NCBI GenBank assembly: GCA_043822925.1
Contig: JBDRBF010000002.1
Location: 1-64,000, forward strand
Length of the DNA: 64,000 bases
Direction: 5' to 3'
DNA from: a bacterium
GTDB lineage: Bacteria > Babelota > Babeliae > Babelales > RVW-14
The position numbers and the translations under genes were made by a program. The number at the start of each line of letters is the position of its first letter. The stretch's first letter is position 1. Shown in pieces: positions 35,791 to 40,415 of the stretch. The notes beneath the pieces were generated by a model. The model was given only the letters and a program-made list of their open reading frames with translations, did no database searches and was not told the DNA's origin.

Positions 35791-36618
35791 ATGACCAGAA
35801 TTAAAAATTATCTTCTACAATTTGTTCAGATGCAGTTAATAATCACGATAATCGCGTTGCCTATATTAATACACTGGGGCCTGTCGATGTCCGTGATGTC
35901 TCTTGTCGGTAATTTTATTTTTACGCCGATATTTGCGCTGGTTATTATCCTGAGCTCGCTTATCTTTTATACAGAGCTTCTGTGTATCCCCAACAGTTTT
36001 TTAGTAACCTGTTATGAGCATGTGATATCTTTTTGGGACAGAATTTTGGATATCGGCCAAAAGTCTTGGCTTGTTGAGTATGCGCACCCGGGGCTTTGGG
36101 TGCTTCTTTCTATCCCACTTATTACTATTCTGTTTTTGTGTTCAAGAAGAGTAAATACGATATATAAGCGTATTTTGGGCATGTTTATTATTCTTGTTTT
36201 GAGCACGGTTGTGCTTTCGTACATTCAGGTGCAAAAAGTAAAAAGTTATACGCACGATTTTAATCACGAAGATTTTGTGATTAAAATAAATTCAGACAAA
36301 ACGCTTACGTTTATAGATAACGGTTTTTTTAATTCTAAACGCTCGCCGGAAAAAGTGGTCGAGTTTGAACTCAAGCAGTTTATAACGAAAAAATATGGTT
36401 CTACTGTTTTTGCTGAACTTATACTTATGCGTCCGGGCTTTCGCAGTTTTGAGGGTGCGTATGCATTTTGTCAGCAATTTCATGTGAGAAAAGTTATTAT
36501 GTCTGAGCTTACAGAAGCTAAAAAAAAGAAGCTGACCAACCAGGGTTGGTCAATCTTCTTTAAATTCACTGATTATTTGCGGGATAATAATATTGAGCTG
36601 AGTTCTTTGTTTAAATAA
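35791..36618 (+). CDS. Membrane protein resembling the C-terminal part of the ComEC competence domain
   Basis: QLIITIIALPILIHWG..SLVGNFIFTP pattern, several TM helices. Confidence 0.55.
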   Translation: MTRIKNYLLQFVQMQLIITIIALPILIHWGLSMSVMSLVGNFIFTPIFALVIILSSLIFYTELLCIPNSFLVTCYEHVISFWDRILDIGQKSWLVEYAHPGLWVLLSIPLITILFLCSRRVNTIYKRILGMFIILVLSTVVLSYIQVQKVKSYTHDFNHEDFVIKINSDKTLTFIDNGFFNSKRSPEKVVEFELKQFITKKYGSTVFAELILMRPGFRSFEGAYAFCQQFHVRKVIMSELTEAKKKKLTNQGWSIFFKFTDYLRDNNIELSSLFK

Positions 36619-36632
36619 TTGAGACTATTATT

Positions 36633-38762
36633 TTATTTAAATCGATCTTCCCATTCTTTATTGTAATAATTGCCGCCTTTAATTTGAGTATTGTTCTCTT
36701 CCACATTATACTTTACTTCAAATCTATAATTATATTCGTTGTATTCTTTGTTCCATTCATCTGGTTCGTATAAAACTTGATACCATTCTAAATTTTTGGT
36801 ATAGGGTGGCACGTTAAATACGCCAAGATTGAATTCTTTATTTATTACATCAAGTATTTCTTGGAGTTCTGTTTTGGATTTTGTTGTAATTTTGAGTTCT
36901 GGAACATCAACAAAAACGTCTTGCCTTGTTTGTTTGTTTTCTCCTGCGTAAAACTTTTTTATTTCTGTTGTTATAGTTACTTGAGGATCCGATACTATAA
37001 GTTTTTCTTTAAGTTGTTTTGAGTATTCGTAAATATATTCGTCAGGCTTATTTCCCGGTTTGGGATATTTGATTGGTCTGGTATCGTTTTCGGCCATGTA
37101 TTTGGTGAAAAAGGTGAAATCTAGGTTGACTTCTTTGCCAAAACGAATTATGAAAGTTGTGTTATTTTGAGGTTGATTTGCTTCGGATGAATAAATATAT
37201 CCGTTGCGACAAGCCCATGTATGATGTTCTCTTATTCTGTGATCCAACTTTGCTTGGCCGGGGGCATCGGTGTGTCGGCATCCAAAGCAGAATTTTGGAT
37301 GTCCACATGGGTTGATCATTTGGCAAGCTCCCCCTCTACCACCAGATTGTCCACATTTTGGACAGTTTTGTGTGTTTAAAAAGAGAGATTGCTCATTCCT
37401 TTCTTTTTCTTGGGCTTCTTTTTTTATTTCGTTTGGATCTTTTTTTATTTGGCATTCGTTTTCTTTATGGAATTTTTTACACGCTGGATGATATTTGTTC
37501 AAGCAAGGGTGACCCTGTTCGTTTTGCCCGAAGCAGTTGATTTCAATCATAGGATTAATTTCGTGGAAGCTTTGTCCATTTCCTAAGCGGTAATATTCGT
37601 TGCAAAGTGAGCATTCTCTATAATTTTCGTCAGTATTATTTTTTTTGGCTTTGGATCTTTTTGCTAGAAATTTAAGCCTATTTATTCTTTCTTTTTTCTC
37701 CATGAGTCTCCCCCCTCCTATTTTTCCTTCCCCTAAGTCAAATCCTCCAACTCTTCCATCGGTTACTATTTTTTCTAACTCTTCATCACTATCAGAGATG
37801 AGGAAGTTGCGGTGTTTGGGGTCAAAACAGGTCAATTCTGTTCCTTCATCGAGGTCAAGGATCCTTTGAATAGGGCAACCCCATGCGCTATTGAATTCAT
37901 CAAGGCAGTACATGGTCTCTTGACCAGGTTTATTGCAGCCACATTTTAATTCGGGGAATTCAGAAAGTGGTTTTTCTTCGAGGCAGATGTTGCATTTTTT
38001 CATTTCTGGTTTGAGAACATCCTTATTGAGTAATTCTATTCTGTCTTTTTTTGTCTTGTCTGTTCCCCCAGATATAAATACCTCCCCCCATTGATTTATG
38101 TTTGGATATCCTCCTGTGATTCCATTAGTTACTATTTTGTCAAAATCAGTATCTCTAATAAGTCTGCTGCATCCAACGCATTTTAATAATGTCCAGTTAT
38201 TACCATCAATGGTTGCCCAAATGGGTCCTTGAACTTTATTGTATTCATTCTTGCAATAAAACTTTTTATTCTTAGGGGCGTTGCAGCCACATAGTAATTC
38301 TGGGAACTTACTTGCATCTTTTTCTTTCTTGCATAGTTCGCAGGTTTTACGGGTGAGGCGTTCTTTTTCCAGTTCTGTTTTCCATTGTGTTCTCTTCTCT
38401 TCTAGCTTTTTTTCCTGTTCCTCGCTTTTTTCGATTTCTTTTCGGGCTTCTTCTTGTTCTATTTTTTCTTGTTCTTCTCGTGCTTTTCGTTCTTCGTCTG
38501 TTTCTACTGCGATATCTACGTTGGGTTCAGGTTTAGGTTCAGGAAGAATTGGGTTGACAGGTTTTGGGTCTTTAGGTTTATCTGGTTTATTAGGTTTTGC
38601 GAGTTTTTGTTTTGCATTATTTAATGAGCCGCTGAGTGCGACTAATTTTTGCTTAAGTGTAGTCAGGCTTTGTTTAAAGGTTTCTATTTTTTTTTCTATG
38701 CCAGAAATTTTATGTACACCAAAAAGACAAAATAGGGTTAAAATAAATAATATTTTACGCAT
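36633..38762 (-). CDS. Secreted Cys-rich protein resembling RING-IBR-RING (RBR) E3 ubiquitin ligases
   Basis: Signal peptide, two RING-like units, IBR-like unit, CPKC..GGAC..C..FCFGC. Confidence 0.7.
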   Translation of the reverse strand: MRKILFILTLFCLFGVHKISGIEKKIETFKQSLTTLKQKLVALSGSLNNAKQKLAKPNKPDKPKDPKPVNPILPEPKPEPNVDIAVETDEERKAREEQEKIEQEEARKEIEKSEEQEKKLEEKRTQWKTELEKERLTRKTCELCKKEKDASKFPELLCGCNAPKNKKFYCKNEYNKVQGPIWATIDGNNWTLLKCVGCSRLIRDTDFDKIVTNGITGGYPNINQWGEVFISGGTDKTKKDRIELLNKDVLKPEMKKCNICLEEKPLSEFPELKCGCNKPGQETMYCLDEFNSAWGCPIQRILDLDEGTELTCFDPKHRNFLISDSDEELEKIVTDGRVGGFDLGEGKIGGGRLMEKKERINRLKFLAKRSKAKKNNTDENYRECSLCNEYYRLGNGQSFHEINPMIEINCFGQNEQGHPCLNKYHPACKKFHKENECQIKKDPNEIKKEAQEKERNEQSLFLNTQNCPKCGQSGGRGGACQMINPCGHPKFCFGCRHTDAPGQAKLDHRIREHHTWACRNGYIYSSEANQPQNNTTFIIRFGKEVNLDFTFFTKYMAENDTRPIKYPKPGNKPDEYIYEYSKQLKEKLIVSDPQVTITTEIKKFYAGENKQTRQDVFVDVPELKITTKSKTELQEILDVINKEFNLGVFNVPPYTKNLEWYQVLYEPDEWNKEYNEYNYRFEVKYNVEENNTQIKGGNYYNKEWEDRFK

Positions 38763-38948: not shown

Positions 38949-39527
38949 TTAACATGAGGCTTTTTTGCGAGTTTCTTCTATTTTTTTTAATTCGTTAGTA
39001 ACATCACGTCGATAGAGTTGGTAGATAGCAAGATGAATAGGTTCGGGGGATATTATTGGGTGAAGGGCGTCTTTTTCTCCGATTTTGGTGAGCCCGTGTT
39101 TCCTGTAAAACCCGTCTGCTGATTCTAGCGTGTCTACTTCTATGGTGTGTAGGTGTGGGTAATAGTCAAAAAGAGAGAGCATGAGCCGCCAAGCCAGACG
39201 TTGGCCTTTATATTCAGGCACTGTGCCTAGATAATCGACATATAATTCGCCGGGTCTGTCTTCATAAAAGTTGCCTAAAATAAAAGATATTACGTTATTT
39301 TGTTCGTCTTTTATTGCGTGAAAATAATAGTTGAGATCACGTTTCTCGAGTGATTCGAGAACTTTTGGGAAGTAGTCGATCCAGTCTTGTTGTGTTTTTT
39401 CTTTTTCAAAAGACAAATTATAGGCGATATAGGTGTTTTTAAAATCTTCAAGATTGTTATAAGAGATCAAGAGCTTTTCGTTTTTTTTAGTGATAAAAAC
39501 ATCGCAGGTATTGTTATTATTGCTCAC
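38949..39527 (-). CDS. GNAT acetyltransferase
   Basis: LGTVPEYKGQRLA, FYRKHG; GTG start after AAGGAG. Confidence 0.85.
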   Translation of the reverse strand: MSNNNNTCDVFITKKNEKLLISYNNLEDFKNTYIAYNLSFEKEKTQQDWIDYFPKVLESLEKRDLNYYFHAIKDEQNNVISFILGNFYEDRPGELYVDYLGTVPEYKGQRLAWRLMLSLFDYYPHLHTIEVDTLESADGFYRKHGLTKIGEKDALHPIISPEPIHLAIYQLYRRDVTNELKKIEETRKKASC

Positions 39528-39560
39528 GTTTTCTCCTTTATATTGGGCTATATTGCGCAA

Positions 39561-40415
39561 TTAAATTTCACTGAGTTTTTCTTTTTTACGTGCTTTTTTT
39601 TCTTTTACTAGTTTTTCTGCATTTTCTCTTGTTAATTCGTAAACAGGATACATCTTTCCATCTGCTAAGTATTTTTCTACCTCTAATGTTTCGCCAATTT
39701 TTACAAAACCGTGTTTTAGATAAAATTTTTCTCCGGCTTGGGAAATGGCTATGCCTTGAATTGATTTTTCCATAGGATAACGGTCAAAAATAGATAACAT
39801 TATTTGCCAAGCAAGATCTTTATGCGCAAAAAGAGGGTGTGTTAGTGTGGTATGACAAAACCACTCGCTTTTGAACTTTCCGTATCGACATGAAATGATT
39901 GTATTATTATCATCTACTATTGCATGAAAATAAAATTTTAAATCATTCTTTTCGAGTGATTTAATAAGGTTTTCGTGGTCTTTTATCCATTTCTCTTTTG
40001 TCCACGCATCTTGCCCTGTTCTTTTAAATGCCACGTTTTCAAGTTCCCATGTATTTTTGAAAAGTTCAGGGTCGTTATAAACAAATTTGAGATGGTTAGT
40101 TTTTTTTGATTGAGATTCTTGTTCAGGTATTTCTGTTTTGATTAATTGGTAAATTTTGTTTTTTACTGAAAACTCGAGGTTTTCGCAAAGAGGTTCATTG
40201 AGCGTTAAGTTTGCAAAATCTTTTTCAAGTTCGTTTATTTTATAAAACGTTGGGTTTTTTTGTGAGAGAAGTGGGTTTGAGCTTGTGAATAAGGTTCTTT
40301 TGTTTGTCTGAGCTCGTAAGTGGTAATATTTTTGCATGGCTTGTGCTTCAAAGCATAGTGTTGCTAGTGGTACGAATAAAAGCGTGAAATATAATAGTTT
40401 TTTGTTCATAGTCAT
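39561..40415 (-). CDS. GNAT acetyltransferase with signal-like N-terminus, paralog of the downstream gene
   Basis: FYFHAI, LAWQIMLSIFD, FYLKHGF. Confidence 0.8.
   Translation of the reverse strand: MTMNKKLLYFTLLFVPLATLCFEAQAMQKYYHLRAQTNKRTLFTSSNPLLSQKNPTFYKINELEKDFANLTLNEPLCENLEFSVKNKIYQLIKTEIPEQESQSKKTNHLKFVYNDPELFKNTWELENVAFKRTGQDAWTKEKWIKDHENLIKSLEKNDLKFYFHAIVDDNNTIISCRYGKFKSEWFCHTTLTHPLFAHKDLAWQIMLSIFDRYPMEKSIQGIAISQAGEKFYLKHGFVKIGETLEVEKYLADGKMYPVYELTRENAEKLVKEKKARKKEKLSEI

Follow-up and report, generated by a model that had tools for sequence, protein, structure and literature searches.

A very divergent homolog of eukaryotic RBR E3 ubiquitin ligases, with a signal-peptide-like N terminus, in a Dependentiae bacterium

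The gene and its product

The window analyzed here is the whole of a 64,000-nucleotide stretch of DNA (positions 1 to 64,000 of contig JBDRBF010000002.1, GenBank assembly GCA_043822925.1) from an uncultured bacterium of the Dependentiae (TM6), which are obligate intracellular parasites of protists. On its minus strand, at 36633-38762, lies an open reading frame (ORF) of 709 codons plus a stop with an intact frame. An earlier note, made from the sequence alone, had proposed that the product of this ORF, here called the target, is a secreted eukaryote-like RING-between-RING (RBR) E3 ubiquitin ligase with a duplicated RING1. All of the motifs quoted in that note are present in the target protein, and they were described correctly in every detail.

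The target begins with a signal-peptide-like N terminus (residues 1 to 21; 38700..38762, on the minus strand, as are all of the features that follow), in which MRK is followed by the 13-residue hydrophobic run ILFILTLFCLFGV and then by HKISG. Next come an amphipathic helical leader (residues 22 to 56; 38595..38699), whose consensus is roughly L..QI..F..SL..LK.KLV.LA..L..VK.KL, and a Pro/Lys-rich stretch that passes into a Glu/Lys-rich helical linker (residues 57 to 137; 38352..38594). These 81 linker residues include 21 E, 14 K, and 10 P, and are mostly missing from P0002, a paralog in the same genome. Unit 1 is a variant RING1 copy with a trailing linker helix (residues 138 to 245; 38028..38351), and unit 2, another variant RING1 with its linker helix (residues 246 to 375; 37638..38027), takes the place of the canonical RING1. 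They are followed by an IBR (residues 380 to 440; 37443..37625) and an Rcat, or RING2 (residues 463 to 520; 37203..37376), in which the codon for the candidate catalytic C480 is at 37323-37325. A C-terminal alpha/beta domain (residues 521 to 670; 36753..37202) starts directly after the last Rcat ligand. The protein ends in an Asn/Glu/Tyr-rich tail (residues 671 to 709; 36636..36752), which has a predicted local distance difference test (pLDDT) score of <50, is unique to the target, and is not found in its relatives P0002, P0003, and P0004.

Homology to RBR ligases

Among 1.84 billion cluster representatives, four proteins matched at E ≤ 1e-3: the target itself, P0002, P0003, and P0004 (full-length form, P0005). 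P0002, which is encoded on contig C26 between mutS and cmk, is similar to the target at E 2e-119, and at the position aligned with the target IBR it has a Pfam IBR match of 40.5 bits (cutoff, 24.3). P0003 and P0005 each have a signal-peptide-like N terminus, one canonical RING1, an IBR, and an Rcat and C-terminal domain of the target type. When a profile of this four-member family was compared with PDB, the best match was ARIH1 (E 5.4e-5, covering RING1 plus the helix behind it); HOIP (E 1.1e-4, over IBR-Rcat) and the parkin Rcat (0.05) were also matched. We aligned the target and its three relatives with 26 canonical RBR cores taken from other Dependentiae genomes and from contig C66 of the target's own genome. 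The modules of these cores line up, in the same order, with unit 2, the IBR, and the Rcat of the target. A search with this 30-row alignment at E ≤ 1e-5 returned the query alone (7096 candidates).

The same alignment was used for an AlphaFold model of residues 135 to 709. The RING part of unit 2 (residues 255 to 334) has pLDDT block means of 74 to 91, its trailing linker 52 to 83, and the Rcat 77 to 91 (model residues 311 to 360, which are protein residues 445 to 494). Foldseek gave 5 matches in PDB at E ≤ 0.001, the best at E 2e-4, and the listed PDB matches, ranks 1 to 35, were all HOIP, RNF216, parkin, ARIH1, ARIH2, or HOIL-1L. For HOIP, RNF216, parkin, and ARIH1 the E values were 2e-4 to 2e-3, with probabilities of up to 0.99, and the alignments to solved RBRs covered 257 to 318 columns. 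In BFVD there were 13 matches at E ≤ 0.001, led by giant-virus RBR-type E3 ligases (E 2.3e-7).

Some results speak against this homology. The target alone has no significant Pfam match, and a phmmer search of PDB with it was insignificant (best match, uL30 at E 0.093; parkin IBR-RING2, 0.24). The structural model is moderate overall (mean pLDDT, 68.8; predicted template modeling score, 0.44), unit 1 is modeled with low confidence (10-residue block means of 33 to 67), and the Foldseek TM-scores are low (0.09 to 0.26), which is what one expects of flexible multidomain chains and of a model with this mean pLDDT. The homology is established from the relatives (the IBR of P0002, the family profile, and the Foldseek matches), whereas the target alone gives nothing significant. 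These three independent lines, which come from paralog sequence, family profile, and predicted structure, agree, and on them we consider it established that the target is a true but very divergent homolog of eukaryotic RBR E3 ubiquitin ligases. The earlier note had suggested profile and Foldseek comparisons with Ariadne and parkin as a check, and both came out in favor of its candidate. Lacking an Ariadne domain, and with a C-terminal fold that matches nothing, the target is not an ortholog of Ariadne, parkin, or HOIP.

Two further resemblances were rejected. A PF18091 match on the target (E 2.2, 8.9 bits) was taken as coiled-coil bias, and the resemblance of residues 206 to 263, in the linker after unit 1 (38100-38130 region), to one part of the eukaryotic ribosomal protein uL30/L7 was insignificant (E 0.09 to 1.5) and is probably due to chance.

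Variant RING1 units

The two RING1-type units of the target are clearly duplicates: 47 of 113 aligned residues are identical, with a BLASTP E value of 8e-22 and a z score of 29.9 against 200 shuffles. The ligand positions of unit 1 are C141 C144 / C158 C160 / C170 E173 / C195 C198, and those of unit 2 are C257 C260 / C274 C276 / C286 E289 / C312 H317. Unit 2 aligns column for column with RING1 of the 26 canonical Dependentiae RBRs and has C or H in seven of the eight RING1 ligand columns, the sixth being Glu289. Compared with the C3HC4 pattern, ligand 4 is Cys in place of His and ligand 8 is His in place of Cys. Unit 1 follows the pattern of unit 2, with Glu173 at the sixth ligand position. 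Thus, of the earlier claim of a duplicated RING1, the duplication held, but neither copy is a canonical RING1.

The target is the only family member without any canonical RING1. Canonical C3HC4 RING1 domains are present in P0003 (zf-RING_UBOX, 30.9 bits; cutoff, 25.2), in P0005, and in unit 2 of P0002, which is the positional counterpart of unit 2 of the target. However, unit 2 of the target scores 186 against unit 1 of the target and 173 against unit 1 of P0002 but only 96 against unit 2 of P0002. Unit 1 of the target is 54% identical to unit 1 of P0002 and 42% identical to unit 2 of the target. The simplest reading of these sequence comparisons is that the ancestral form of the family had a single canonical RING1, as in P0003 and P0005, that the lineage of the target and P0002 gained a variant RING1 copy upstream, and that in the target the canonical RING1 was then overwritten by, or swapped for, the variant type.

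IBR, Rcat, and the catalytic cysteine column

We defined ligand columns as those with Cys or His in ≥75% of the canonical rows, which gave 24 columns. In the target, 22 of these hold C or H, one holds Glu, and one is a gap. All eight IBR ligands are filled (C384, C387, C410, C420, H425, C428, H432, and C437), with His instead of Cys at one of them (H425) and 7 extra residues between ligands 3 and 4. This substitution and this insertion are the reason that Pfam misses the IBR of the target.

The Rcat-like unit reads C467-P-K-C470, G-G-A-C480, C486, H488, C492-F-G-C495, H513/H514, and C518. Cys occupies the C480 column in every one of the 29 rows that extend over it, the remaining row of the 30 being truncated. 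C480 lies between the CPxC pair and the FCxxC pair, and C467, C470, C486, C492, C495, and C518 are kept. Furthermore, Cys480 and the FCFGC, HH, and AC motifs are invariant across the four family members. The earlier note had placed a catalytic Cys after GG, and Cys480, which follows GGA, does fall in the column of the Rcat catalytic Cys.

The one gap among the ligand columns is the third Rcat zinc ligand, which is Cys in all 25 canonical rows that cover it. H488, two residues past C486, may stand in for this lost ligand; P0002 and P0003 also have a His beside their equivalents of C486. The second deviation is at the +2 position from the candidate catalytic Cys, which is Met482 and not His in the target. 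A passage of PMC11354881 describes the +2 His as the general base in HOIP, parkin, and HHARI. Of 29 relatives, 16 keep this His, whereas all four members of the subfamily lack it at +2; it is a frequent feature of RBRs and not a strictly defining one.

The C-terminal domain

The domain behind the Rcat is conserved in all four family members (its conserved stretches include RFGKEVNLDF, DVPEL, and NKEFN) and is predicted to consist of two beta-hairpins and two long helices. It had no match in Pfam, none in the Atlas at ≥0.9, and none among PDB folds at E ≤ 0.001, where the best (0.015) were generic alpha/beta sandwiches. The Ariadne domain, which is helical and masks the Rcat, is not present; what the target is predicted to have instead is hairpins and helices. 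The pLDDT of the C-terminal domain reaches 96 in the long model, whereas its mean is 56.9 when the domain is folded alone. Because it starts directly after the last Rcat ligand and is modeled better together with the Rcat, we suggest, by analogy with the LDD of HOIP, that it may form one unit with the Rcat and select the acceptor. A tail domain held in common with four other Dependentiae RBRs was considered and is not supported (hhalign probability, 7.4% over 24 columns).

Export signal and helical leader

The N terminus of the target is positive in a crude test of hydropathy and charge (best 11-residue Kyte-Doolittle mean, 3.13), and so are P0002, P0003, and 23 of 25 other Dependentiae RBR ORFs; P0005 has a signal-peptide-like N terminus of the same kind. 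These 25 ORFs include the C66 protein and overlap largely with the 25 core-spanning ORFs described below. Although the MRK start, the hydrophobic run, and the test result all agree with the signal peptide seen by the earlier note, the test discriminates poorly, because 390 of the 776 ORFs of ≥250 amino acids in the same genome also pass it. Passages of PMC4378268 and PMC6561590 state that most ankyrin-repeat proteins of Dependentiae have signal peptides and propose that they are secreted into the host. With its signal-peptide-like N terminus, as judged by this unspecific test, and its eukaryote-type domains, the target has the same effector-like pattern.

A hidden Markov model built from 6 leaders and scanned against the ORFs of the genome (independent E < 1e-3) found the leader helix, of about 35 residues, on 24 ORFs: in 13 it is just behind a signal-peptide-like N terminus, in 7 at the extreme C terminus, and in 4 internal. 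The carriers include RBR, RING, ankyrin, and ubiquitin-specific protease (USP) proteins. The helix may be a common targeting, docking, or oligomerization tag. Examples are at C36:2-1108, C14:3640-4392, C38:730-2121, C63:2811-3656, C35:6068-7687, and C9:17189-21115, and P0003 bears a similar helical leader. On contig C36 (L004:2-2487, minus strand), this leader is combined with ankyrin repeats and several C3HC4 RING fingers in two adjoining ORFs, which may be a single gene interrupted by a frame break.

Distribution of RBR genes

In passages of PMC3305615 and PMC12375989 the RBR/TRIAD module is treated as eukaryotic. We nevertheless found Pfam IBR matches above the curated cutoff in 45 of 261 species-representative genomes of Dependentiae and in none of 14 control genomes, and at E ≤ 0.001 in 31 of 145 Dependentiae genera. 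Single-contig assemblies are among those with RBR genes. The earlier note had called RBR-type ligases unusual in bacteria; they are indeed rare in bacteria generally, but they are frequent in Dependentiae. In some genomes RBR genes are clustered: of the 13 Pfam IBR matches in G242, most fall inside a stretch of about 15 kb (G242:C1:585000-601000), and G194 has 11, on contigs C1 and C2. These clusters suggest local tandem expansion of RBR genes.

At the loci of the phylum search, 25 ORFs have a profile match over most of RING1-IBR-Rcat. The family profile (A1) had matches in 34 of the 261 Dependentiae genomes; only in the target's own genome did any of them reach as far as the C-terminal domain of the target. 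We also scanned the whole collection of prokaryotes, one genome per species, with a 6-row alignment (A5) in a pattern-limited search. It gave 27 loci. Where a locus title names a taxon, this is mostly Dependentiae, Babeliales, or TM6, and the remaining loci are titled only "uncultured bacterium" or "uncultured Pseudomonadota." A few partial matches were in metagenome-assembled genomes (MAGs) of Myxococcota, Planctomycetota, Endozoicomonadaceae, Competibacteraceae, and Acidobacteria. One of them, on a MAG contig titled Myxococcota (L059), is 31% identical over nearly the full core (query residues 13 to 210), and another, on a contig titled Endozoicomonadaceae (L066), is RBR-like over the Rcat only. 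No relative was found for A5 or A1 among the viral contigs of IMG/VR, a weak negative, since the scans were limited to two peptide patterns for each query.

Two canonical Dependentiae RBRs are publicly named "hypothetical protein." We found no paper on a bacterial RBR ligase in full-text searches of the literature, although the supplements of PMC4378268, which were outside the scope of these searches, may list such domains. Within the literature searched, the target belongs to a phylum-wide set of RBRs that is undescribed. Judged from its sequence, it is also new in itself, as a bacterial export-tagged RBR that has two copies of a Cys3-Glu variant RING1 and carries a novel C-terminal domain.

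Ubiquitin-related genes in the same genome

The genome of the target is a draft of 86 contigs, 92% complete, with an estimated contamination of 3.2%. It has three secretins, RING-finger proteins, the canonical RBR on contig C66, and two loci for USP-type deubiquitinases. Ubiquitin had no match in this 92% complete genome. The E2 family (UQ_con) and F-box-like genes were also unmatched, but they were unmatched in every one of the control genomes as well; therefore, the absence of E2 and F-box-like genes is not shown. A ubiquitin-directed repertoire of proteins with signal peptides is described for Babela massiliensis and Chromulinavorax destructans in passages of PMC4378268 and PMC6561590; the proteins named there are an F-box protein, a RING protein, USPs, and Ulp1-like proteases, with no RBR among them. 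The ubiquitin-related genes of the target's genome fit this repertoire.

The C66 protein (L007:133-1716, plus strand) is a canonical RBR of 528 amino acids, with the Rcat CPKC..GGCDHMTC..FCWRC behind a large hydrophobic N-terminal region. This region starts with a YAEMGLALA.IP.D.AAH-like motif, which is also found in the RBR ORFs at L036 and L038, from the same taxonomic family. The three proteins look like an ortholog group of membrane-anchored RBRs.

Comparison with known systems

Known bacterial effectors with ubiquitin ligase activity use RING/U-box or HECT logic or have folds of their own (NEL, SidC, and SidE). Those that depend on a Cys are the HECT-like SopA/NleL, the NEL proteins IpaH/SspH, and SidC. 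As proposed for the target, these are secreted proteins that use a catalytic Cys to take over the E2~ubiquitin of the host; however, their folds are unrelated to RBR and convergent, and they are secreted by type III or type IV systems, whereas the target is a homolog of a eukaryotic enzyme and has a putative Sec-type signal. SopA is mentioned in a passage of PMC3305615.

Of the eukaryotic enzymes, ARIH1/HHARI (PDB 4kbl, 5udh, and 7b5l) has the same RING1-IBR-Rcat order as the target and the same Rcat pattern, CPxC...GC...FCxxC...H...C, with the catalytic Cys; it is the best PDB match of the family profile and among the top Foldseek matches. Unlike ARIH1, the target is bacterial, has a signal-peptide-like N terminus and a duplicated variant RING1, and lacks both the Ariadne domain and the +2 His. 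The top Foldseek match in PDB (E 2e-4) was the RBR-LDD of HOIP/RNF31 (PDB 5edv and 6sc5). HOIP and the target both have an extra domain that follows the Rcat without a linker, an analogy that suggests that the domain in the target may position the acceptor. No likeness to the LDD beyond that of position was seen in sequence or fold, and the target has none of the UBA, NZF, or PUB modules of HOIP.

The best structural matches were the RBR-type E3 ligases of giant viruses (Fadolivirus, Hokovirus, Klosneuvirus, and Yasminevirus in BFVD; E 2.3e-7 to 4e-4). Like the target, these lie outside the cellular eukaryotes, and the hosts of these viruses, amoebae and other protists, are of the kinds in which Dependentiae also live. 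Unlike the target, they are without the C-terminal domain and no signal peptide has been reported for them. The canonical Dependentiae RBRs (e.g., those at L012, L017, and L020 and the C66 protein) have the phylum, the signal-peptide-like N terminus, and the aligned core columns in common with the target. They differ from it in having a single RING1 of the C3HC4 type, the full set of Rcat ligands, and mostly GCxHMTC, and in having no detectable copy of its C-terminal domain.

Proposed function and alternatives

The reading that we favor, with a probability of roughly 0.6, is that the target is an active RBR-type ubiquitin ligase that acts in the host. The protein would be exported by Sec and would then reach the host cytosol, with secretins or outer membrane vesicles as candidate routes. 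The three secretin genes are circumstantial evidence for such a route, and vesicles are suggested in a passage of PMC6561590. In the reducing cytosol of the host the Cys/His modules would bind zinc, and a RING1-type unit would recruit E2~ubiquitin. We propose that this E2~ubiquitin is the host's because no E2 or ubiquitin gene was found in the bacterium. Ubiquitin would pass to Cys480 as a thioester and from there to a host substrate, which the alpha/beta domain fused to the Rcat might position, much as the LDD of HOIP does with the acceptor.

Several findings make us cautious about activity. The target has no canonical RING1: both copies have Glu at ligand 6, and in both 9 extra residues separate ligands 4 and 5. 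Its Rcat has a gap in place of one zinc ligand and no His at +2, and the search for an E2 in the genome, which found none, had no positive control. In addition, the crude signal-peptide test is passed by half of the large ORFs, and a Sec signal leads to the periplasm, an oxidizing compartment from which there is no known route to the host cytosol.

Those same changes raise the somewhat unlikely alternative that the target is a pseudo-ligase derived from an RBR, which has kept its zinc modules, maybe binds ubiquitin, an E2, or a host partner, and serves as a decoy, scaffold, or inhibitor. In its favor, the target has no canonical RING1 (Glu173 and Glu289 at a zinc-ligand position, plus the insertion) and lacks one Rcat ligand and the +2 His, and Pfam detects no domain in it; the paralog P0002, with its canonical RING1, could carry the enzymatic role. 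However, Cys480 and the FCFGC, HH, and AC motifs are invariant in the four family members, 22 of the 24 ligand columns are kept, and unit 2 is modeled with good confidence. Nor is the loss of the +2 His specific to the target, because it is also missing from 13 of 29 relatives, among them the rest of the four-member family.

It is very unlikely that the target instead belongs to the bacterial envelope or surface and has nothing to do with ubiquitin, its Cys-rich modules becoming disulfide bonded after Sec export and serving a structural or adhesive role. A signal-peptide-like N terminus does direct a protein to the periplasm, about half of the large ORFs in the genome pass the same crude test, and no dedicated system for effector translocation was identified. 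Yet the Cys/His pattern fits the zinc ligands of RBRs column by column, and the same export signal is found on ankyrin, RING, and USP-type proteins, which, as passages of PMC4378268 indicate, make sense only inside a eukaryotic cell. We find it hardly credible that the gene is a decaying pseudogene or misbinned DNA of a eukaryote or giant virus, even though RBRs are typical of both (the BFVD matches and passages of PMC3305615) and the assembly is a draft of 86 contigs with an estimated contamination of 3.2%. The frame is intact over 709 codons, bacterial housekeeping genes lie on both sides at unremarkable GC content, and P0002 has its own place next to mutS and cmk on another contig. Furthermore, 45 of 261 Dependentiae genomes have RBR genes, single-contig assemblies among them, and no relative was found in viral contigs in the scans with two peptide patterns.

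An active, host-directed ligase could also be part of something larger, although we consider this unlikely as a whole: a phylum-wide, Sec-exported arsenal of RBRs of eukaryotic descent, combined with a portable helix as an effector tag and with new modules that recruit the E2 and select the acceptor. The helix would then be a tag for delivery, docking, or host targeting, and the pair of Cys3-Glu RING1 units would perhaps suit a different E2 or ubiquitin-like modifier or hold two E2~ubiquitin conjugates.

If the RBRs of Dependentiae are active, the phylum would add a third eukaryotic E3 mechanism to those found in bacteria, acquired by descent and not by convergence. Proteins of this kind would be natural experiments on which parts of an RBR are dispensable (the canonical RING1, the +2 His, and one Rcat ligand), and they would provide compact, apparently unregulated RBRs for structural work. 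The presence of RBR genes in 45 of 261 genomes and their tandem arrays also bear on gene flow among protists, giant viruses, and intracellular bacteria.

Neighboring genes

The housekeeping genes around the target are tmk, holB, gpsA, and uppS, and the GC content at the gene is like that of its surroundings. A scan for promoters and terminators at the target gave nothing decisive. The ORF at 35791-36618 (plus strand, 275 amino acids) converges on the target and has a match to the ComEC "Competence" family of 21.6 bits (cutoff, 23) that covers only profile positions 158 to 265 of 270; possibly, this is a comEC gene that has been truncated or split. Two ORFs lie upstream of the target on its own strand. 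The nearer, at 38949-39560 (minus), encodes a GNAT acetyltransferase (Pfam, 35.1 bits). Beyond it, the ORF at 39561-40415 (minus) has a signal-peptide-like N terminus and no Pfam match. By eye, these two ORFs have motifs in common, e.g., ..YFHAI.D..N.IIS, for which reason they may be a duplicated, partly exported pair of acetyltransferases.

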